Positions 5,203 to 63,532 of a stretch of DNA of 64,000 bases are shown piece after piece. The translations under genes and the position numbers were made by a program. The first letter of the stretch is position 1. Each line of letters begins with the position of its first letter. The stretch covers positions 378,551-442,550 of the forward strand of contig JAIELV010000001.1 in the NCBI GenBank assembly GCA_019752595.1, given 5' to 3'. This stretch comes from Patescibacteria group bacterium (GTDB lineage: Bacteria > Patescibacteriota > Minisyncoccia > Phycocordibacterales > Phycocordibacteraceae). Below the pieces are notes generated by a model. The model was not told the DNA's origin and did not search any database. It was given only the letters and a program-made list of their open reading frames with translations.

Positions 5203-6312
5203 ATGCGTTCACTTGAGCGAGGCACACGAAGAGAGACACTTGAGAAAGCGATAGCGCGTATTGCGTTCGCCTACGGATTCACCTCGCAACCTGTTGCGAT
5301 TTCACGAAAGACTGCGAGCGCTACGCACGCCGACACAAAAACCGCTGCATCACTTTCACTTTTGAAATCTGCAACTACCACGGTGTCTGCAGGACCACTG
5401 CAACTCTGGGGCGCATTGAAAACAACACATGGCACCGCACTCTCACTCGCGGTCGTCGGCACCAAACAGGCAATCGGCAACGCACTCGTGGTGAAAACAG
5501 CGCTCTCGATTGTTGAACTTTCAGGTTTTGAAAATCCTTCGGTCATGGTGTCTTCTGTTGGTGACGCAGAATCAAAACGTCGCTTCACGCGCGAGCTAGG
5601 AAACTTCTTTAAGAAAAACGCTGAACATATACCCACTGACCTGAAAGCGAAAGTCGCGCATGATCCTGATGGTGCGTACCGCGAACTTTTGACACGAAAA
5701 GATCCAATGATGGAAAAAGCACCTCGCACTATTGATTACCTTTCTGAGAACTCAAGAAAAGCTATGCTTGAAACGCTTTCGTTCTTTGAAGCAGTTGGCA
5801 TTGGCTATACCATCGACGCACGCCTCCACGGCGAAGCAGGAGTTGCGGGCGATTTGGTATTCGCAATAGACGCGCAAGACAAATCGGGCGAACGCATCCG
5901 TATCGCAACAGGCGGACGTTTTGAAAATGAAACAAAGAAAGCGGGACTTCCTGAAGGTCGCACTGCAACCGCGCTTACCCTCTCCCTCTCAAAGGCTCTG
6001 CGATTGGACGAAATGCAACAGGCACCGAACTGTTTCGTGGTTCACGTCGGCGATGCAGCAAAATTGAAGGCATTCACTCTTCTTGAATCACTCTGGAAGG
6101 CACACGTTGCGGTGACCCAAACCCTTATGTCTGACAACTTTCGCGACCAAATAGAGAAAGGCAGGCTTTCAGGCGCAAAATATCTTGCCATCATCGGTCA
6201 ACGAGAAGCTCTCGACAGTACGATCATTGTGAGAAATGTAGCGACCCAAATGCAGACCACGCTCCCTATGGAAAAACTTGAAGGATACGTCCTTCGCGGT
6301 GCACGTGCATAG
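5203..6312 (+). CDS. histidyl-tRNA synthetase-like protein (class II aaRS fold plus anticodon-binding domain) with a degenerate motif 2
   Basis: N-terminal GTRRETLEKAIARIAFAYGF matches the HisRS N-terminus, ATGGRFE resembles motif 3 (GGRYD), and the C-terminal AKYLAIIGQREALDSTIIVRN resembles an HGTP_anticodon domain. The motif-2 arginines (FRYERPQ.GR.R.F) are replaced (LKTTHGTALSLAVV). Confidence 0.55.
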   Translation: MRSLERGTRRETLEKAIARIAFAYGFTSQPVAISRKTASATHADTKTAASLSLLKSATTTVSAGPLQLWGALKTTHGTALSLAVVGTKQAIGNALVVKTALSIVELSGFENPSVMVSSVGDAESKRRFTRELGNFFKKNAEHIPTDLKAKVAHDPDGAYRELLTRKDPMMEKAPRTIDYLSENSRKAMLETLSFFEAVGIGYTIDARLHGEAGVAGDLVFAIDAQDKSGERIRIATGGRFENETKKAGLPEGRTATALTLSLSKALRLDEMQQAPNCFVVHVGDAAKLKAFTLLESLWKAHVAVTQTLMSDNFRDQIEKGRLSGAKYLAIIGQREALDSTIIVRNVATQMQTTLPMEKLEGYVLRGARA

Positions 6313-6322
6313 AAGTTGAAAC

Positions 6323-6877
6323 ATGCCAAGACGGCAAGAACAAAAACCATACACCCCTGAAATTCTAGCGCGCGCCGAGGCACTTCATAGTTCTGGTCTT
6401 ATGTGGAAGACAGTCGCGGAGAGAATCGGACACTCGTTTGGTTCCCTCATGACAACTCGTTCTCAAATAAAAAAGAACACAACTCGTGTGACGGCTGGAG
6501 AAATGCGTGCAGAGTCTGCGCGAAAAATGGCGTACGTAGAAACATTGATTTCACTTGGAATGAAGCCGAAGGAAATGCAGCACGTCTTGAAACTATCAGG
6601 CAGCGCGTTGTCTATGCGATTTCTGAGCTGGGGCTTAGATCGCGAAGAACGCGTGGCGCTACGCCTCGCGGATGAAATATTTGCAGGCACACTACAAAAA
6701 GCGCGAGCGATTGTCCGCGAATATAGTGGCTCATCTCTACCAGCAAGGAAAAGTGCCGAGTTACGTGAACTAAAGCGAGAACTTCATCGCCGCTCTGAGC
6801 TGAGACTCGCTGAAATCGAAGCCCTTGTCCATAATTCCCAAGACGCGTCTATTTCAGAAACTCACTCGGAAGCGTGA
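6323..6877 (+). CDS. hypothetical protein, possibly HTH-containing
   Basis: 184-aa ORF in a co-directional operon-like array. No clear motif. Confidence 0.45.
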   Translation: MPRRQEQKPYTPEILARAEALHSSGLMWKTVAERIGHSFGSLMTTRSQIKKNTTRVTAGEMRAESARKMAYVETLISLGMKPKEMQHVLKLSGSALSMRFLSWGLDREERVALRLADEIFAGTLQKARAIVREYSGSSLPARKSAELRELKRELHRRSELRLAEIEALVHNSQDASISETHSEA

Positions 6878-6915
6878 ATTGCAAAAACCCCCCCTGTGTG
6901 CTTAAATAACGCGCT

Positions 6916-7164
6916 ATGGCAGTAAACGTATCAGTCGTTAAACACGGCACGGAGAACTCAATGAGCCTTATTCGAAGGTTCACGAAGCGCATGCAAGGCG
7001 CAGGTATTGTCCGCAAGGTAAAGGGTATGCGCTACAAGTTGCGCAGTCAGTCAAAAAACCGCCGCAAAACTTCAGCATTGGTACGCGTTGAAAAGCACGC
7101 AAAAAAGACCGAAATGGAGAAATTGGGTCTCCTTGAGGCTCGCCCAGAACGCCCTCGCAGATAA
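6916..7164 (+). CDS. rpsU: 30S ribosomal protein S21
   Basis: 82-aa basic protein. LIRRFTKRMQ...RKxRxxxK pattern of S21. Confidence 0.8.
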   Translation: MAVNVSVVKHGTENSMSLIRRFTKRMQGAGIVRKVKGMRYKLRSQSKNRRKTSALVRVEKHAKKTEMEKLGLLEARPERPRR

Positions 7165-7170
7165 CAGCAC

Positions 7171-7563
7171 GTGGCTTCCTTCTCTCTCGTCAATGAAACC
7201 CGAAACCCTCTCCTGAGGGTTTCTTTTCGTAAAATCGCAAAGGAAGTTATGGGCGAGAAGTATTCCCTGTCGGTTATTTTCACTACACCGAAAAAAATAG
7301 CTAAGTTGAATGGAAGCTACCGCGGGAAGCCTACTTCAACAGACATCCTTTCGTTCGGGCTCTCAAAAACAGAGGGCGAACTCTACATTTCAATGCCTGA
7401 TGTTGTAAAAAAAGCCCCACTTTTCTACCTTTCAACTAAAAAATATCTCGAGTACCTGTACATTCACGGCCTCATACACCTCAAAGGTTTTGATCACGGA
7501 CGAAAAATGGAAGCGGTAGAGAAAAAATACTGCAAACGGTTCGGGTTCACGCATCCCTCGTAA
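7171..7563 (+). CDS. ybeY: rRNA maturation endoribonuclease YbeY
   Basis: TDILSF motif and H..HxxGxDH zinc motif (HGLIHLKGFDH). Confidence 0.8.
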   Translation: MASFSLVNETRNPLLRVSFRKIAKEVMGEKYSLSVIFTTPKKIAKLNGSYRGKPTSTDILSFGLSKTEGELYISMPDVVKKAPLFYLSTKKYLEYLYIHGLIHLKGFDHGRKMEAVEKKYCKRFGFTHPS

Positions 7564-19899: not shown

Positions 19900-20718
19900 T
19901 TAAAGTTTATGAGTAAGATCTCCAACTGGAACGAGTGTAATACGATTTAGATTAGGGCTAAGTACTTTTACTAATCTGTGAAGACGTGCCATTTCGACAT
20001 CTAACTCTTCCTTGGATCTAATTCTTTGCTCCGAAAAGACGAAAAGCTTGCTTTCGACAAGCTCTATATCATGCCTCCATTCGTCCACATCTAATACTGC
20101 AAGCACATCTGGGGTCAGAATTTCAAATGCTTCTCGTTCGTACCCTTTTGGAGCATATAATCTGAATTTTTGATTGAATCCTGGGGGTGGTGAAACACGA
20201 GGAAGGAAAAACTCTTTTATTCCCGAAAGGCTTTTGTTGTGCGTGTTATTAAGATAGAAGTGTGGGAAGGTACCCGAAAACACTACTTCGAACACGGAGT
20301 AGAACCTATATTCGGCAGATTTACCAAAACCGTTTTGGTAGCTGTATTGAAAAAATCGAAAAGCGCGGTCCTCAATCGTTCCCATAAGTCCGTGTGTGGT
20401 TGATTTATTGTGACCTTCACGGAACATCAATGCATCATTTTGAAAGTACGGCTTCCAAACATACGTGTACCCGTATTCAGCTGCCAACTCTTTCCAAAAA
20501 CGTTCAGCGAGCTTTGAGAGATGAGAAACGTACAGCACCACGACTACCGACGCCAAAAATGCCGCGAGGACAAACACTCCTGCTACCACCTCTACGGGAA
20601 TGAGGGAAAAATAAATACTCGTAACGCCGAAAATTATAAGTAATACGTCAAGCAACGCAAAACCTAAGAGTATATACACGAATTGCTGTTCCGATACTTT
20701 TTGTTCGTTTTGAATCAT
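19900..20718 (-). CDS. membrane protein, hypothetical
   Basis: Two N-terminal TM helices. The longer ORF (to 20769) would overlap tRNA-Ser, so I chose the ATG at 20718. Confidence 0.5.
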   Translation of the reverse strand: MIQNEQKVSEQQFVYILLGFALLDVLLIIFGVTSIYFSLIPVEVVAGVFVLAAFLASVVVVLYVSHLSKLAERFWKELAAEYGYTYVWKPYFQNDALMFREGHNKSTTHGLMGTIEDRAFRFFQYSYQNGFGKSAEYRFYSVFEVVFSGTFPHFYLNNTHNKSLSGIKEFFLPRVSPPPGFNQKFRLYAPKGYEREAFEILTPDVLAVLDVDEWRHDIELVESKLFVFSEQRIRSKEELDVEMARLHRLVKVLSPNLNRITLVPVGDLTHKL

Positions 20719-20722
20719 AGAG

Positions 20723-20809
20723 CGGAGAGGGAGGGATTCGAACCCTCGGTACAGTTTCCCATACGCCACATTTCGAGTGTGGTGCCTTCGACCACTCAGC
20801 CACCTCTCC
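20723..20809 (-). tRNA. tRNA-Ser (anticodon CGA)
   Basis: Manual fold: acceptor GGAGAGG/CCTCTCC, anticodon loop CUCGAAA, long variable arm, T-loop GGTTCGAAT. No CCA encoded. Confidence 0.9.
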
Positions 20810-20929
20810 TTGGATGCAACTTCGCGATTCTAGCATTTTTCAATCAAAATGCTATATTTCAAGCCACGGCTTCATGCAATGAAGCCGCTCGGCTCATAAA
20901 GAGCGCCTTCTGCGATAGCAGAAGGATCG

Positions 20930-20969
20930 GCCCGCCAAACGTGCAGCTCTGCTCACGTTTGAGTGGCCT
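20930..20969. repeat. 40-bp direct repeat, copy 1, containing the hairpin AAACGTG...CACGTTT
   Basis: Identical to 21041-21080. Confidence 0.85.
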
Positions 20970-21040
20970 TCTTGAAACAGTTTTGCTCACGCAAAACCTC
21001 GGCTTAGAAAAAGCCCTTATCTGCTAAAGCAGATAACTCA

Positions 21041-21080
21041 GCCCGCCAAACGTGCAGCTCTGCTCACGTTTGAGTGGCCT
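21041..21080. repeat. 40-bp direct repeat, copy 2
   Basis: Identical to 20930-20969. Confidence 0.85.
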
Positions 21081-21127
21081 CGCTCGAAGAAAATGAATTC
21101 GTACACGATTCATTTTCCTTCTCGCTC

Positions 21128-21199
21128 GGCCCCATCGTCTAACGGCTAGGACGCATCCCTTTCACGGATGAAATCGGAGTTCGATTCTCCGTGGGGTCA
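21128..21199 (+). tRNA. tRNA-Glu (anticodon TTC)
   Basis: Manual fold: acceptor GGCCCCA/TGGGGTC, anticodon loop CTTTCAC, T-arm CGGAG-TTCGATT-CTCCG. Confidence 0.88.
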
Positions 21200-21204
21200 T
21201 GATT

Positions 21205-21232
21205 CATAAAACCGCCTTGTGGCGGTTTTTGT
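21205..21232 (+). terminator. rho-independent terminator after tRNA-Glu
   Basis: AACCGCCTTGTGGCGGTT followed by a T-run. Confidence 0.6.
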
Positions 21233-21348
21233 ATACATGAACTCAAGCGAGCAAACTGCTTTGCTCGCGTCTGGAGAATCGAAGGTGGTTGAGCATATGA
21301 GTGAGCAATACGAATGCGAAACCCGTACTGCTTCTGTAAGAAGCGATT

Positions 21349-21366
21349 CTCCGTGGGGTCACAAAG
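21349..21366 (+). repeat. 18-bp duplicate of the tRNA-Glu 3' end (CGATTCTCCGTGGGGTCA)
   Basis: Exact copy of tRNA-Glu 3' end 21182-21199, about 150 bp downstream. Followed by a long hairpin at 21363-21409. Confidence 0.8.
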
Positions 21367-21570
21367 TACAAAAAGCCGCCAAGCAGTTGGCGGCTTTTTG
21401 TACTTTGTGACGGACGGAGGCATGTTTTGTCAGCAGACAAAACAGCTGAGGCGGGGCAGAGAACACTTAGTATTTTACTCCCCCTGGGAGTAGAATACTT
21501 AGTGATTCGTGACCACTTTTTCTGCAATTGAAGAATGAAAACCGCCTCAAAAAACCATCGAATCTACACA

Positions 21571-21894
21571 ATGAGCGTCGCGCGCGTATACCCTTTGTAC
21601 ATTACAAAAGTAAAGAAAAAAGGACGCACAAAAGCTGAAGTTGATGAAGTCACTCGCTGGCTTACGGGGTATACGCAAAAACAACTCGAGGTGCATTTAA
21701 AAAAACAAACTGATTTCAAAACCTTCTTTGCGAAAGCGAAAATAAACCCCTCGCGAAAATTAATTAACGGCGTTGTGTGCGGCGTTCGCGTCGAAGACAT
21801 CAAAGAGCCCACTATGCAGGCTATACGCTATTTGGATAAACTTGTCGACGAACTAGCCAAAGGCAGACCGATAGAAAAAATCCTTCGAAAGTAA
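21571..21894 (+). CDS. small conserved hypothetical protein (DUF2200-like)
   Basis: About 108 aa starting [21 protein letters not shown]. The N-terminal pattern recalls the DUF2200 family. Family assignment is from memory. Confidence 0.45.
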
Positions 21895-24592: not shown

Positions 24593-25168
24593 GTGGATCT
24601 CGAAAAACAAAAACTCCTGGTTCCACGCGTCCCACGAAGAGCAGTACTTGCAGGTCTGTTATTGCCGCTTGTGAAAACGGTTCCTGCGACGCGTGAAGAA
24701 CGACAACGACTTGCTGAGCAAAATATTTCACACCTTCCTGAAATAGTGCTTGCCGATTTGCGCGCGCGAACTTCGGGGGTCGGAGAAACCCATTTCGGCG
24801 ACGAGCTTGCTGCAGGCAGATTCCTGGCGAGTGAAAACGAGCTCGGGAGAGAAGTGAGCGCTGCCATACTTGAGCTCCAGGGCGAGGGCGACCAAAAGAT
24901 AGCCCCTGATCTTGCAGAAGCACAGGTGTATTGGCTACTCAGAAATTCTGGGCATGGTCAAAGGCTGTCGCGTACAGAACGTGAAGCTATTGTTGCTCTT
25001 TCAAATTGGTGGCCTGAGATCTTTGAGCCGTATTACGACGACGGAGATGGTTCGCGCCGCACGCTTGTTGAAGAAATGCGAAACTACCCCTCGCTTCAAA
25101 GAGCTTTTGAAAGAAGCGGGCGTCAAGACATAGAAGTTGCCGACGCGAAATCCCGCTCATCCGACTAA
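24593..25168 (+). CDS. hypothetical protein (GTG start)
   Basis: 191-aa ORF with no motif. Confidence 0.45.
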   Translation: MDLEKQKLLVPRVPRRAVLAGLLLPLVKTVPATREERQRLAEQNISHLPEIVLADLRARTSGVGETHFGDELAAGRFLASENELGREVSAAILELQGEGDQKIAPDLAEAQVYWLLRNSGHGQRLSRTEREAIVALSNWWPEIFEPYYDDGDGSRRTLVEEMRNYPSLQRAFERSGRQDIEVADAKSRSSD

Positions 25169-25193
25169 AGTGCTATACTAAGTATAGCACTTT
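25167..25193. repeat. 27-bp perfect palindrome AAAGTGCTATACT-A-AGTATAGCACTTT, a family member of 2573-2601
   Basis: Sits between the convergent 3' ends of the 24593 ORF and orn. Confidence 0.8.
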
Positions 25194-43285: not shown

Positions 43286-43340
43286 ACCCACGCTGCCACC
43301 CTTACCCGTTGGCGTCCCTGTCCTCTGTTGCCCACCTCCA

Positions 43341-43364
43341 AATCTTCCCATATATGGGAAGATT
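43341..43364. promoter_or_regulatory. 24-bp perfect palindrome AATCTTCCCATATATGGGAAGATT, copy 1
   Basis: Overlaps the first ATG of the TrpR-like gene. Identical to 43831-43854. Confidence 0.7.
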
Positions 43365-43821
43365 TTCTCGAGAAATGGAGTACACTTATAACAATATGAA
43401 AATCCGCCCTGGAAAACTGACGAGGCAACAAACCATAGAGACACTCGACGCGCTTTACACTGCAGCGAGTGCAATCAAGGGTAGGGATGCTGTAAAAATG
43501 TTTCTTCGTGATCTACTCACAAAAAGCGAGCGCGTTATGCTCGGTAGAAGAATACTTATCGCGCAAAAGCTTTTAGCAGGAGAAACTCAAACAGCCATTA
43601 AACAGTCTCTCGGGGTTGGAAACGACACAATTGCCAGAGTTGAACAGTGGCTTCAAGACCAAATTCCAGGATACGAACAAGCGCTGAAGAAAATGGAAGA
43701 AGTGTACGACGCGCGCGCGATGCGGAGAGCTCCGCTTGGTACGTTTGGATATTTAAAAAGAAAATACCCTCTCCACTTCCTATTCTTTCCTATTCCGAAA
43801 CGACCCACGAGTAGAAAATAG
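43354..43821 (+). CDS. TrpR-related YerC/YecD-family DNA-binding protein
   Basis: ERVMLGRRILIAQKLLAGETQTAIKQSLGVGNDTIARV is a Trp-repressor-like HTH. Start is uncertain (43354, 43375 or 43396). Confidence 0.65.
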   Translation: MGRFSREMEYTYNNMKIRPGKLTRQQTIETLDALYTAASAIKGRDAVKMFLRDLLTKSERVMLGRRILIAQKLLAGETQTAIKQSLGVGNDTIARVEQWLQDQIPGYEQALKKMEEVYDARAMRRAPLGTFGYLKRKYPLHFLFFPIPKRPTSRK

Positions 43822-43830
43822 TTTTCAACC

Positions 43831-43854
43831 AATCTTCCCATATATGGGAAGATT
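43831..43854. promoter_or_regulatory. 24-bp perfect palindrome AATCTTCCCATATATGGGAAGATT, copy 2
   Basis: Downstream of the TrpR-like gene and upstream of prsW. Confidence 0.7.
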
Positions 43855-43933
43855 GCACATTACGTTACTCACGAAATCACCCCAAGAATACTTAATGGAT
43901 TGGGTATGAAATTTTATACGTTAGAATAAAGCA

Positions 43934-47577: not shown

Positions 47578-47787
47578 GAACGAGAAGGAAAATAAGGAAC
47601 TTGTTCACTTATTTTCTTCGAGTGAGCTTGGGAAAGCTTGGCTTACCCATAGCAAACTCGCTTAGGATAATAGCGCGAAGTGCGTCTTTTTGCGAGTGAA
47701 AGAAAAAAGAAAGCTCACTCTCTTTTTTCGCGAACCGAGCAAAAAGAATCCTAAGCGAATTAGCTTAGGAAGCTTGGACAAGGCTTC

Positions 47788-48648: not shown

Positions 48649-48663
48649 CGAGTGAGAAAGAAC

Positions 48664-48685
48664 ATAGAAATGCTAGCATTTCTAT
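48664..48685. promoter_or_regulatory. 22-bp perfect palindrome ATAGAAATGCTAGCATTTCTAT just upstream of the tRNA-Arg 5' end
   Basis: Seen in sequence. Confidence 0.5.
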
Positions 48686-48836
48686 ACTTTTCGAACGAGC
48701 CGTCGAAAGCTTTTGTTTCAAAAGCTTACTGCGGGGCGTTCTCGACTTCAACCCTTGCAAGACTTACACGCGAGGCCGTGCAAAGAGCTTATCACGCTCA
48801 GTATGACGAAAAAACCGCCCTTTCGGGCGGCTTTGC

Positions 48837-59410: not shown

Positions 59411-59588
59411 TTGCGGTGAAATTATATCCTTTGCGCGAACCCATTTCGAGCAGAACCCCTGACCTATCGCGCCTCGCGGACTCGGCGCTCCCCGCGCGAG
59501 GACGCGCGGGCGACCGAAGCCCTGCCGCTTCCTATGCATTTCTGTTTTGGCGGGGGAAGTGCATTGAAGAATTGGAATGGAGCGGCAG
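59411..59588. repeat. IR1-L: 178-bp inverted repeat, perfect reverse complement of 61554-61731
   Basis: Direct base-by-base comparison. GC-rich with internal hairpins (CCGCGCG-AGGA-CGCGCGG). Confidence 0.9.
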
Positions 59589-61553: not shown

Positions 61554-61731
61554 CTGCCGCTCCATTCCAATTCTTCAATGCACTTCCCCCGCCAAAACAG
61601 AAATGCATAGGAAGCGGCAGGGCTTCGGTCGCCCGCGCGTCCTCGCGCGGGGAGCGCCGAGTCCGCGAGGCGCGATAGGTCAGGGGTTCTGCTCGAAATG
61701 GGTTCGCGCAAAGGATATAATTTCACCGCAA
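61554..61731. repeat. IR1-R: 178-bp inverted repeat (partner of 59411-59588)
   Basis: Perfect reverse complement of IR1-L. Overlaps IR2-L by about 6 bp. Confidence 0.9.
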
Positions 61732-61857
61732 CTTGATACTTCCATCGGATTTAATTCCGAATCTGCGCCCGAGGCGGGCGGGCGCAGATGCATTTTCGCG
61801 CGCAGACGCGCGGTATTCTCTGACGGCGGGGAGAATCCGAAATGCGGGGATTTGCCC
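61726..61857. repeat. IR2-L: about 132-bp inverted repeat, perfect reverse complement of 63272-63405
   Basis: Direct comparison. Contains internal hairpins (TCTGCGCCCG-AGGC-GGGCGGGCGCAGA). Confidence 0.9.
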
Positions 61858-61879: not shown

Positions 61880-63532
61880 ATGGATAACAAACCAAAATAT
61901 TTTCTATACGCGCGTAAGTCGTCAGAGGATGATGACCGCCAAGTGATGAGCATTGAGGCGCAACTGTTTGAACTGCGTGAATACGCGTGTAAAGAAAACC
62001 TTGAAATTCTTGAGGAATTTCAAGAGTCGAAAAGCGCAAAGACACCCGGCCGTGATATTTTCGGCCTCCTCATGGCGAAAATTGAGCGTATGGACGGCGT
62101 AGGCATACTCGCGTGGCATCCCGATAGGTTGGCGCGTAATAGCGTGGACGGAGGCAGAGTTATTTATGCCGTAGACACGCGCAAACTGGTGTCTATGCGC
62201 TTTCCGACATTTTGGTTTGAACCCACCCCGCAGGGGCTGTTTATGTTGCAAGTGGCGTTCGGCCAATCGAAATATTATTCCGATAATTTGAGTGAGAATA
62301 TCAAACGGGGTATCCGCCAAAAATTGCGACGAGGCGAGTGGTTGAACTGCGCTCCCTTTGGCTATCAGAATAATTTGCGTATCAGGAATATCGAACCGCA
62401 CCTAACCGAAGCGCGTATCGTGAAATTAGCGTACGAAGAATACGCCAAAGGGTCGCACACTCTCGTTTCGCTCGCGCAATTTTTGGCGGAGCTGGGCGTA
62501 CTTACGAAAAACCGAACGCCACTTGCCAAAGTTTCCATCAAACGGCTTCTAACGCACCGCGTCTATATCGGCTTTGTGAAGCACGCAGGCGAATGGTTTG
62601 ACGGAAACTTTGAGCCAATTCTTTCACCGCAATTATTTGAAGCCGTACAGAAAATCGTCGTGAGCAAGGAACGGCCGCGCAAAAGGAAAATCAAGCACGA
62701 TTTTCCTTTTACCGGACTTTTTCGATGTGGCGAGTGCGGAAGCATGATTAGCGCACAATGGGCAACTGGAAAATCCGGCGGTCGCTACCGCTATTATCGG
62801 TGTTCGAAAAAGCGCGGCCGTTGCTCTCAACCGTATGTGCAGGAAAGTGAGTTAGCGGACAAAATCACGGCACGGCTTCAAACAATCTCACTCCCCGATA
62901 GGTATACCGGCTGGATGCTGAACAAAGTGGACGAATGGGAGCGCGAAGAAACCGCCTCAACGGGGAGCGAGGTTCAAAATCTTTCCGAGCAAATCAAAGC
63001 GAACGAGGCACGCATGGAGAAACTCGTTTCTGCGTACTTAGATAACGATGTACCGAAAGAAATGTACTTGAAGCGAAAAGACGCGCTCATGCGTGTCCTC
63101 GCCGCTTTGAAAGTCGAAAAGAAAAATTTTGAACGCGGAAGAAAGAATTGGGTCGAACCCCTGCAGAAGTGGATTTTGGATATGAAACAAGCCGATTTTT
63201 TGTCCTCATCCAGCAATTTCGGAGAAATTGCCTCCTTCGTCAAAAAAGTCGGAACGAACCCTATGGTTCGTGGCAAATCCCCGCATTTCGGATTCTCCCC
63301 GCCGTCAGAGAATACCGCGCGTCTGCGCGCGAAAATGCATCTGCGCCCGCCCGCCTCGGGCGCAGATTCGGAATTAAATCCGATGGAAGTATCAAGTTGC
63401 GGAGACGGCGAGATTCGAACTCGCGGAGGTTTGACCCTCACTCGCTTTCCAAGCGAGCGCACTAGACCACTATGCGACGTCTCCGTTGCCTTCTTGTATA
63501 CCATATATGTAACCTCCCTACAGCTTCCGTAG
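61880..63532 (+). CDS. large serine recombinase (resolvase domain, recombinase domain, zinc ribbon)
   Basis: YARKSSEDDDRQVMSIEAQ catalytic Ser motif near the N-terminus and a CGECG...YYRC zinc-ribbon. The C-terminal reading frame continues through IR2-R and the antisense of tRNA-Ser, so the true stop is uncertain. Confidence 0.8.
   Translation: MDNKPKYFLYARKSSEDDDRQVMSIEAQLFELREYACKENLEILEEFQESKSAKTPGRDIFGLLMAKIERMDGVGILAWHPDRLARNSVDGGRVIYAVDTRKLVSMRFPTFWFEPTPQGLFMLQVAFGQSKYYSDNLSENIKRGIRQKLRRGEWLNCAPFGYQNNLRIRNIEPHLTEARIVKLAYEEYAKGSHTLVSLAQFLAELGVLTKNRTPLAKVSIKRLLTHRVYIGFVKHAGEWFDGNFEPILSPQLFEAVQKIVVSKERPRKRKIKHDFPFTGLFRCGECGSMISAQWATGKSGGRYRYYRCSKKRGRCSQPYVQESELADKITARLQTISLPDRYTGWMLNKVDEWEREETASTGSEVQNLSEQIKANEARMEKLVSAYLDNDVPKEMYLKRKDALMRVLAALKVEKKNFERGRKNWVEPLQKWILDMKQADFLSSSSNFGEIASFVKKVGTNPMVRGKSPHFGFSPPSENTARLRAKMHLRPPASGADSELNPMEVSSCGDGEIRTRGGLTLTRFPSERTRPLCDVSVAFLYTIYVTSLQLP
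63272..63405. repeat. IR2-R: inverted repeat (partner of 61726-61857)
   Basis: Perfect reverse complement of IR2-L. Abuts the 3' end of tRNA-Ser(GGA). Confidence 0.9.
63400..63484 (-). tRNA. tRNA-Ser (anticodon GGA)
   Basis: Manual fold: GGAGACG acceptor, anticodon loop TTGGAAA, long variable arm, T-arm GCGAGTTCGAATCTCGC. No CCA encoded. Confidence 0.85.

Follow-up and report, generated by a model that had tools for sequence, protein, structure and literature searches.

Structured DNA blocks at the two ends of a Patescibacteria tRNA-Glu gene, possible miniature elements of tRNA gene boundaries

Why should a tightly packed bacterial genome hold a concentration of strong hairpins around a single tRNA gene? 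We examined this question in a 64-kb stretch of DNA from a Patescibacteria group bacterium (GenBank assembly GCA_019752595.1, contig JAIELV010000001.1, positions 378,551 to 442,550 of the forward strand), hereafter the window, to which all positions below refer and within which proteins and repeats were counted. The genomes of Patescibacteria are tiny and tightly packed, with few recognised mobile elements, and yet modules of 150-260 bp are gained, lost and duplicated here at tRNA boundaries. The first-pass annotation had described one 700-bp hairpin-rich, non-coding gap between divergent tRNA-Ser and tRNA-Glu genes and had offered three origins for it: structured small RNAs, an attenuator array for the tRNAs, or remnants of a mobile element. 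ARAGORN and Rfam confirm the divergent pair, tRNA-Ser(CGA) at 20722..20809 on the minus strand and tRNA-Glu(UUC), with no encoded CCA, at 21128..21199 on the plus strand (58.8 bits each in Rfam). The hairpins are real, with 11 of the 47 perfect hairpins of the window that have a stem of at least 8 bp falling in 20831-21444, but the single gap is not: tRNA-Glu lies within it, so there are two, one between the tRNAs (20810-21127; fold z-score against shuffled sequence -8.7 on the plus and -8.2 on the minus strand) and one from tRNA-Glu to a DUF2200 gene that bounds the region (21200-21534; z-score -13.8 for 21200-21535, plus strand; gene at 21535..21894, plus strand, Pfam E = 4.4e-49). The region is a tRNA-Glu gene with two lineage-specific DNA blocks at exactly its two ends. 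Of the three proposed origins the mobile one fits best, given copies of tRNA ends within the blocks, shorter or absent blocks in relatives and a patchily distributed 3' module; small RNAs are a live rival.

Close relatives were found with the DUF2200 protein as anchor (86-93% identity, and 92-93% on the contigs from JGI samples 3300045378-98; related loci carry L numbers here). All those retrieved have the same tRNA-Ser and tRNA-Glu sequences, tRNA-Ser being identical at 89/89 positions in L146 and tRNA-Glu identical in both L139 and L146. HisKA, Big_13 and Vut_1 neighbours are shared by L139 and L141, and the Sua5 neighbour by L146 and L148. The spacer between the tRNAs is 58 nt in L139 and L141, where tRNA-Glu begins directly after ...TGCTATATTTCAAGCCAC, and 212 nt in L146, L145, L147, L148 and L140, where the same 58 nt are joined by one 154-bp unit. 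Aligned with L139, the window matches at 143/145 positions over 20722-20866, then carries 260 bp with no counterpart in L139, and matches again at 73/73 positions over 21127-21199; upstream units thus number none in L139, one in L146 (at the same site) and two in the window. On the other side, the distance from the tRNA-Glu 3' end to the start of DUF2200 is 39 nt in L146-L148 versus 335 nt in the window. Because relatives with identical tRNAs have shorter or empty spacers, we conclude that both blocks are insertions or expansions at the mature tRNA-Glu ends. As with genomic islands, there is presence/absence polymorphism at the same tRNA; the 3' flanking gene differs, being a DUF2200 paralogue. 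The first-pass annotation had called for such a comparison across related genomes and had held that a repeat found nowhere else would count against it: a diverged copy of the unit exists in the relatives, the 5' unit count varies from 0 to 2, the 3' block is absent from the closest of them, and part of that block is scattered patchily over distant contigs.

The 5' insertion (20868..21127, plus strand, 260 bp) runs from the promoter to position +1 of tRNA-Glu and comprises a hairpin at 20867-20887, two tandem units of ~111 bp and a leader hairpin. The two 40-mers that had first drawn attention to the locus (20930-20969 and 21041-21080) are identical as described, with 0 chance copies expected and no third copy in the window, and they sit in this ~111-bp tandem duplication (repeat family D1, 61 nt at 89% identity; D4 also matches). 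The predicted fold of each unit is a row of three hairpins, called H_a, H_b and H_c. H_b has a perfect 8-bp stem in both units, CCTTCTGC GATA GCAGAAGG in unit 1 (20906..20925, plus strand) and TTATCTGC TAAA GCAGATAA in unit 2 (21017-21036, plus strand); the units differ at three base pairs in H_b and at one in H_a, all compensated, and L146 has CTTTCTGC TTC GCAGAAAG. H_c, the predicted fold of the exact repeat (20929..20969 and 21040..21080, plus strand), reads GGCC-CGCC-AAACGTG...CACGTTT-GAGT-GGCC, and its L146 orthologue, GGCCCGCC-AAATCTG...CAGATTT-GTGGGGCC, has two compensatory pair changes relative to the window. At its base H_c reproduces the acceptor stem of tRNA-Glu (in L146, GGCCCGCC...GTGGGGCC-T against GGCCCCA...TGGGGTC-A in the tRNA), and its 3' strand in L146, TGGGGCC, exactly complements the 5' acceptor strand of the tRNA. 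These acceptor-strand copies come without a T-loop or CCA, and neither ARAGORN nor Rfam calls a tRNA or tmRNA there.

Between the second H_c and the tRNA lies a foldback module (21079..21128, plus strand; GAAGAAAATGAAT...ATTCATTTTCCTTC, predicted fold with a perfect core at 21089-21117), flanked by an 8-bp direct repeat, CTCGCTCG, at 21079-21086 and 21121-21128, the final G of whose second copy is tRNA position +1. The 5' order is therefore acceptor-stem-like 40-mer hairpin, T, foldback between CTCGCTCG repeats, tRNA +1. This leader module occurs three times in 64 kb, each time directly upstream of a tRNA gene, the other copies preceding tRNA-Phe (~47578-47640, minus strand) and tRNA-Arg (~48650-48712, minus strand) and being flanked by TCNNTCG repeats; it also precedes tRNA-Glu in L146. 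At window Phe and Arg, 55-56 nt upstream of the gene, there is an exact 7-nt complement of that gene's 5' acceptor strand, and an acceptor-strand complement is found at the equivalent place at L146 tRNA-Glu (sequence read by eye); an inverted acceptor copy is present in only 1 of 116 other tRNA-Glu loci. Among the structures at this locus, the leader module alone combines terminal inverted repeats with a flanking direct repeat, as miniature inverted-repeat transposable elements (MITEs) do; neither the 40-mer nor the 3' module described below occurs anywhere else in the window.

Is the 5' block part of the tRNA-Glu transcript? A palindrome at 20827..20858 (hairpin 20831-20854, perfect 9-bp stem) reads as a promoter on both strands, with TAGCAT at 20831-20836, 16 nt and TGC-TATATT at 20850-20858 facing tRNA-Glu, and TAGCAT, 16 nt and TGC-TAGAAT at 20835-20827 facing tRNA-Ser. 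These hexamers were assigned by eye; a consensus scan returned a single weaker promoter-like site, on the minus strand (TTGAAA, 16 nt, AAAAAT, 20862-20835). The same palindrome stands between the same tRNA pair in L139, L146, L140, L018 and L062 and upstream of tRNA-Glu in L054, and in L139 tRNA-Glu begins 9 nt past TATATT. We infer that it is a shared two-way promoter, which gives a clean working model for such promoters of Patescibacteria tRNAs. Since it lies upstream of the whole 5' block, the block would be co-transcribed with tRNA-Glu in a leader of ~263 nt. Elsewhere in the window, two near-identical 12-13-bp palindromes, AAA(T)GTGCTATAC-loop-GTATAGCAC(A)TTT at 2573-2601 and 25167-25193, include TGCTATAC(T), a sequence similar on both strands to the tRNA promoter's extended -10 box.

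The place of these hairpins in a transcribed leader is what speaks for a cis-regulatory attenuator or leader array controlling tRNA transcription, one of the three origins first proposed. That proposal does not hold up well. The hairpins fold independently in series, with no alternative terminator/antiterminator pairing; the only two terminator-like hits in the gap are both on the minus strand, and no hairpin on the plus strand, that of tRNA-Glu, is followed by a U-tract. Rfam gives no T-box or leader match, L139 has the same tRNA with no leader at all, and the copy number ranges from 0 to 2 among relatives. We give this explanation hardly any credence.

The 3' block begins with an inserted unit, unit A (21200..21343, plus strand, 144 bp), directly after the tRNA. 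It contains hairpins at 21208-21229 and 21247-21268 (both plus strand), the latter including the conserved GCAAACTGCTTTGC, an inverted 11-nt copy of the T-arm, covering T-loop and T-stem (GGAGAATCGAA, 21273-21283, plus strand; inverted pair I13), an interior of ~45 nt and a small hairpin with a TGTAA loop (GCTTCTGTAAGAAGC, 21330-21344, plus strand). Unit A is followed at 21344..21361 (plus strand) by an exact 18-nt repeat of the tRNA-Glu 3' end (21182-21199; family D2), which spans T-loop to discriminator and was overlooked by the first-pass annotation; 0.05 copies are expected by chance, and the second copy lies 162 nt downstream of the first. The bases after it (CAAAGTAC...) resemble those that follow intact tRNA-Glu in relatives (GGGGTCACAAA...), and DNA blocks beyond it match the DNA downstream of intact tRNA-Glu in L089 and L062 and of a tRNA-Ser in L019. 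Because the DNA that follows the second copy matches that after intact tRNA-Glu genes in relatives, this copy is probably the 3' end that the gene originally had, pushed downstream by an insertion of 162 bp. A perfect 25-bp hairpin (21358..21411, plus strand; inverted pair I1), likewise missed earlier, begins inside the second copy (GTCAC...GTGAC), and comparable long hairpins that incorporate a tRNA 3' end are found in L089, L052, L040, L058, L075 and L062.

A direct repeat of a tRNA 3' segment that flanks an insert, with an intact tRNA at one end, is the arrangement seen at genomic islands, and the repeat covers the same T-loop-to-discriminator span as classical tRNA attachment sites. Might the 3' block then be the scar of a larger integrase-borne island or prophage that entered at the tRNA-Glu 3' end and was later deleted, leaving attL and attR, with the 5' block an unrelated local duplication? 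The DNA just after tRNA-Glu does vary among otherwise similar loci (L080, L094 and L120; L039 and L096), L015 has an island after tRNA-Glu, an open reading frame (ORF) upstream of tRNA-Glu in L124 has a serine-recombinase-like N-terminus (first 40 residues, by eye), and arrays of partial tRNAs produced by repeated integration are described for tycheposons (bioRxiv 10.1101/2020.12.28.424599). However, the same 150-220-bp architecture is intact in many lineages, complete with an internal inverted tRNA-end copy and conserved loops, and stands behind different tRNAs in one genome, a convergence not expected of random deletion scars; phage and viral collections gave no matches, and the pairing of the module that follows is maintained by compensatory change. 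We consider the scar explanation quite improbable.

That module, of two domains and 105 nt (21412..21516, plus strand), follows the long hairpin. P1 (21413-21452, plus strand) is a hairpin of three tiers whose internal loop is GNA/GA and whose end loop is AGCA; P2 (21455-21514, plus strand) is a long imperfect hairpin ending in ...GTGACCAC. A covariance model, R1, built from seven copies of the module, scores the window copy at 91.6 bits and, beyond it, detects 18 copies at E < 0.001 spread over 12 other contigs, along with a weak hit in L062. The strong hits are in L019, L089 (two), L004 (three), L052, L123 (two), L124 (three in tandem), L040, L048 (two), L075, L018 and L058, with one hit each in L004 and L123 being an overlap on the opposite strand; by eye, the module is also present in L108 and on the tRNA-Glu side of L018. 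The copies on these 13 contigs adjoin tRNA genes or tRNA fragments, some in tandem and some enclosed by tRNA-end repeats. The module thus occurs in distant contigs with different tRNA-Glu sequences, yet it is missing from the closest relatives, where R1 finds none in L139-L148.

The structure of the module is conserved on one strand. P2 has two-sided changes at 7 of its 21 pairs, pairing in 91.8% of cells and two sequence types with one shape; its covariation score of 0.322, against 0.141 in shuffles, is reached by 0/500 shuffles and exceeds all slid controls. These shuffle counts are not formal probabilities, the alignments being small and the sequences related, and the locus set was collected with a tRNA-Glu anchor. 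The outer and middle helices of P1 covary through all four Watson-Crick pairs around a GNA/GA loop that stays fixed, and most copies keep AGCA as the end loop. The tRNA (top) strand folds better in 17/17 copies, with 31 versus 15 G-U pairs, and two diverged copies within L018 keep the structure through compensatory changes. On this small sample of related sequences, the module therefore has what is expected of a structured RNA, namely a structure conserved on one strand with compensatory changes.

Several known structures were considered for P1-P2 and rejected. Tandem occurrence, variable presence and the lack of an Rfam hit tell against SRP, 6S and RNase P RNA, and no known self-cleaving ribozyme class has an Rfam hit. 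A kissing interaction between conserved CTGC hairpin loops and the P1 AGCA loop shows no covariation, and by eye L075 and L018 are counter-examples. A K-turn in the P1 internal loop is contradicted by position 2b, which is not A, so that a canonical K-turn does not fit (sequences read by eye). A promoter inside P2 would leave P1 unexplained, and the -10-like hexamers that P2 does contain are expected in AT-rich palindromes.

These features of the module support the most substantial rival reading, in which the blocks are sources of functional RNAs. The tRNA-Glu precursor would be cut in its leader and trailer by RNase P, 3' processing and perhaps RNase III (the last at the long perfect hairpins), releasing 40-mer minihelices and P1-P2 RNA, which would work in trans or serve tRNA-processing proteins as decoys or handles, and the tRNA-end copies would be functional mimicry rather than attachment sites. 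Besides the P1 and P2 covariation, the strand bias and the two L018 copies, this reading draws on the inferred promoter upstream of the 5' block, on the pairing of H_b and H_c that is kept between the window units and L146, and on the next gene, which is on the same strand in 9/9 scorable cases (ORF maps read by eye). It is burdened by close relatives that have identical tRNAs with no 3' module and with 0 or 1 leader unit, which makes none of these parts essential; by the lack of an evident promoter for the 3' module and the presence of terminator-like hairpins between it and the tRNA; by exact identity of 15-22 nt to the adjacent tRNA end, more than a helix needs; and by the absence of any matching Rfam family. 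The small-RNA proposal of the first-pass annotation stands to this extent as a live alternative, if in our judgement a somewhat unlikely one.

What connects the two blocks is their order. In L108, L048 and L018 the tRNA 3' end is followed by a hairpin, an anti-tRNA segment, P1, P2, ~14 nt with TGTA, and a direct repeat; the anti-tRNA segment complements the acceptor 3' strand, T-stem and T-loop, and in every case repeat and anti-segment match the local tRNA. L018 has three tandem units after tRNA-Ser, each closed by a repeat of that tRNA's 3' end (two of them identical, with a different interior), and its tRNA-Glu is followed by an anti-T segment of its own and P1. Other unit interiors are found in L045, L041, L105 and L063, and window unit A is of this class; the ends of its interior are common to L048 and L052, and its TACTGCTTCTGTAAGAAG matches both at 18/18 positions, beside tRNA fragments. 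Six of the related loci (L018, L108, L048, L045, L041 and L105) show the order hairpin, anti-T segment, interior, TGTAA, direct repeat. Five other loci have short-range repeats 107-222 nt downstream of tRNA-Glu, and four have anti-T segments 40-53 nt downstream. The 5' block shows the mirror order (5' acceptor copy, hairpin, acceptor-strand complement, leader hairpin, tRNA), so that both blocks have in common a tRNA-end copy, a hairpin, an inverted complement, further hairpins and a second tRNA-end copy.

We therefore favour, at about an even chance of being right, a reading of the blocks as miniature mobile or duplicative elements, non-autonomous and directed at the ends of tRNA genes. It is supported by the 5' polymorphism of 0, 1 or 2 units, by the absence of the 3' block from L146-L148, by a leader module common to three different tRNAs and by the patchy distribution of P1-P2. 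Such elements could persist by always leaving an intact tRNA, either inserting at the mature 5' end or bringing a replacement 3' end with them, and they would be tolerated in leader and trailer, since both are cut away by RNase P and 3' processing. Paired as a duplex, end copy and inverted complement might offer a folded site of attachment to a recombinase provided in trans, and tandem copies could arise from repeated insertion or unequal crossing-over.

Stem changes on both sides can also be produced without selection or mobility. Palindromes beside highly transcribed tRNAs could grow by intrastrand template switching in a lineage with reduced repair, a mutational by-product, neither functional nor mobile, that would copy adjacent tRNA ends in inverted form and create apparent compensatory changes. 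The process yields exactly such two-sided changes, many stems here are perfect, up to 25 bp, and on both sides the inverted tRNA-end copies lie across a hairpin from the tRNA. It leaves unexplained the conserved unpaired nucleotides, the blocks of 19-22 nt that are 100% identical between distant genomes, the direct repeats and tandem units, and the leader module common to three tRNAs, and it sits poorly with the occurrence of the module at non-homologous sites already suggested above. We rate it as very improbable.

Database searches returned no known family for either block. The covariance-model scan that the first-pass annotation had recommended found nothing beyond tRNAs in the window at the Rfam 15 gathering threshold, and tRNAs alone in five related loci at E <=0.01, leaving the 40-mer and the 3' module with no family; no Rfam family matches the module in the window, in the region at E <=10 or in the five related loci. 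The scan of the region at E <=10 gave sub-threshold hits, the miRNA-like ones on the 25-bp hairpin, which we attribute to long hairpins. There is no intron- or HEARO-type Rfam match. Complementary segments are present, as in IS110 bridge RNAs or group II introns, but the units of 144-220 bp hold no ORF and the window encodes no such protein. The tRNA-like 3' fragment led us to consider a tmRNA or two-piece tmRNA, which we rejected as there is no ARAGORN or Rfam call, no tag frame and more than one copy; integron attC sites were rejected for lack of an R/L box consensus. In viral and phage sequences we found neither the 40-mer core nor the P1 pattern, and the three hits to the 3' arm of P2 were rejected by R1; BLAST of both blocks against phage records gave no match.

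Several of these observations weigh against miniature elements. P1-P2 behaves like a selected RNA, with compensatory changes, conserved unpaired bases and a G-U bias towards the tRNA strand, and two diverged copies that preserve structure exist inside one genome, L018. The 39 proteins of the window, which covers 64 kb of an 831-kb genome, include no integrase, transposase or reverse transcriptase (Pfam), and neither phage records nor viral contigs match. No excised form, no pair of empty and filled sites for the module and no identical dispersed copies were seen. The 'empty' 3' site of L146 adjoins a different DUF2200 paralogue and is thus not strictly the same site, and the anchoring of the locus collection on tRNA-Glu biases the apparent association with that gene. 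No repeat of the tRNA-Ser 3' end was found beyond the neighbouring gene for a 272-aa protein. The mobile-element and functional-RNA readings are not fully exclusive, in that a mobile element may depend on RNA or single-stranded DNA structure. A more specific form of the mobile-element reading, which we think unlikely and put forward as conjecture, is that these are previously undescribed, protein-less elements of Patescibacteria that find tRNA gene ends by built-in complementarity, the inverted tRNA-end copy, folded in single-stranded DNA or RNA, recreating the target or pairing with it and so steering insertion to the mature 5' or 3' tRNA boundary, and P1-P2 serving as the handle for a recombinase or nuclease acting in trans.

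Other observations concern rearrangement and repeats at or near such loci. The tRNA-Ser/tRNA-Glu locus is a rearrangement hotspot among the close relatives: the pair is inverted between the window (19900-21894) and L139 (2091-3360), and in L140 (2254-3360) two DUF2200 paralogues of 107 and 119 aa flank the tRNA pair in inverted orientation and could drive the inversion by homologous recombination. The 272-aa protein gene (19900-20718, minus strand) has no Pfam hit, and its family, labelled 'SPP1 phage holin family' by one source, is also found at L004:5324-6163 and L001:6001-6852. The window protein is 100% identical to one listed by NCBI under 'Patescibacteria group bacterium', and the best relative in the genome collection is a Saccharibacteria MAG; look-ups of the exact window sequences of this protein and of DUF2200 gave no record. 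In three genomes the gene stands beside tRNA-end modules or fragments of tRNAs, and the syntenic Vut_1/tRNA junction of L139 lacks it; the gene may be cargo of an insertion at the tRNA. Loci related through this protein (L001-L013) have almost no synteny, with tRNA-end fragments in L001 and modules in L004. In L001 (5230-5420, minus strand), two inverted tRNA-Glu-like 3' ends (…TCCCCGTGGGGTCACCA / TTCGATTCCCCGTGGAGGTC) lie ~115 nt apart with no tRNA gene nearby, followed by a hairpin that starts with ACAAAGTGCAA, like the window hairpin. In L124, a 505-aa ORF (5677-7194, minus strand) lies just upstream of a tRNA-Glu, which is in turn followed by three tandem modules of P1-P2 type and a methyltransferase-like gene; judged from the first 40 residues, the source of both labels, the N-terminus of the ORF (…IYTRKSTDTEDRQ…) looks like that of a large serine recombinase.

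Fragments of the 5' half of tRNA-Glu, 25-35 nt long, are repeated upstream of the intact gene in L074, L114, L052, L048 and L072, each followed by GC-rich hairpins or an insert of ~110 nt, so element-like insertions also occur within or at the tRNA-Glu 5' half in other lineages. A 98-kb viral contig of IMG/VR (L014:477-748) has a tRNA-Glu-like gene with 5' and 3' parts of the window type, split in its anticodon loop by ~200 nt that look like a group I intron; no tRNA is called at this site by ARAGORN. Within the window, two mutually inverted pairs of GC-rich palindromes bracket 2.1 kb (59491-59510 and 61632-61651, loops AGGA vs TCCT) and 1.6 kb (61761-61789 and 63339-63367, AGGCGGG vs CCCGCCT), the last being ~30 nt from tRNA-Ser(GGA) at 63399-63484. 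A hairpin with an 11-bp stem, (A/C)AATCTTCCCA TATA TGGGAAGATT(T/G), occurs twice, 490 nt apart, at 43340-43365 and 43830-43855.

If mobile, the blocks rank with the smallest known site-specific elements and would imply an unidentified targeting mechanism; if they are RNAs, several Patescibacteria lineages have in P1-P2 a new class of conserved non-coding RNA tied to tRNA genes. There is a lesson for annotation too: where these genomes show an orphan tRNA 3' fragment or a 'non-coding gap' next to a tRNA, it is a structured insertion and not assembly noise.

How do these blocks compare with known systems? The closest are tRNA-integrating islands and the partial-tRNA arrays of tycheposons. With tRNA-targeting elements in general (tycheposons, cis-mobilisable elements, att scars) they share insertion at the tRNA 3' end, a T-loop-to-discriminator repeat, regeneration of an intact tRNA, tandem arrays split by partial tRNA copies and presence that varies among relatives, but the units here are 110-220 bp long and gene-less, with an internal inverted attachment copy and covarying hairpins, a mirror-image class is found at the tRNA 5' end, and no cognate recombinase was found in the window. 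Like MITEs and foldback repeats (Correia, RUP, BOX, ERIC; REP/BIME), the modules are short, protein-less, hairpin-forming, multi-copy and intergenic, and the leader module has the terminal inverted repeats and short direct repeat of such elements at three window tRNAs; unlike them, insertion is tied to tRNA gene ends, and each leader copy carries the acceptor-strand complement of its own tRNA. We know of no sequence relation to Correia, RUP, BOX, ERIC or REP/BIME, families that were not searched directly.

Analogies with folded recombination sites and with RNAs can also be drawn. As in integron attC and CTX phage attP, direct and inverted copies of the target across a hairpin could fold as a mimic of the target, structure appears to be kept more than sequence, and folding seems strand-specific with G-T wobble, whereas here the context is not of IntI or XerCD type, an R/L box consensus is lacking, and the target is a tRNA end. 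The resemblance to guide segments of bridge RNAs and group II introns is by analogy, the defining proteins being absent from the window. Under the functional-RNA reading, the closest parallel would be 3'ETS-leuZ of Escherichia coli, a small RNA derived from a tRNA spacer and thus likewise a structured RNA from the trailer or leader of a precursor, although the two have no relation in sequence or structure, and the modules here are dispensable in close relatives and bounded by tRNA-end copies. Finally, the base of the 40-mer and the helix of anti-segment and repeat copy the acceptor stem (and T-stem), as do tRNA-like minihelices such as the tmRNA domain and those of viruses, and differ from these in having no T-loop, D-arm, anticodon analogue or encoded CCA, and no call from ARAGORN or Rfam.

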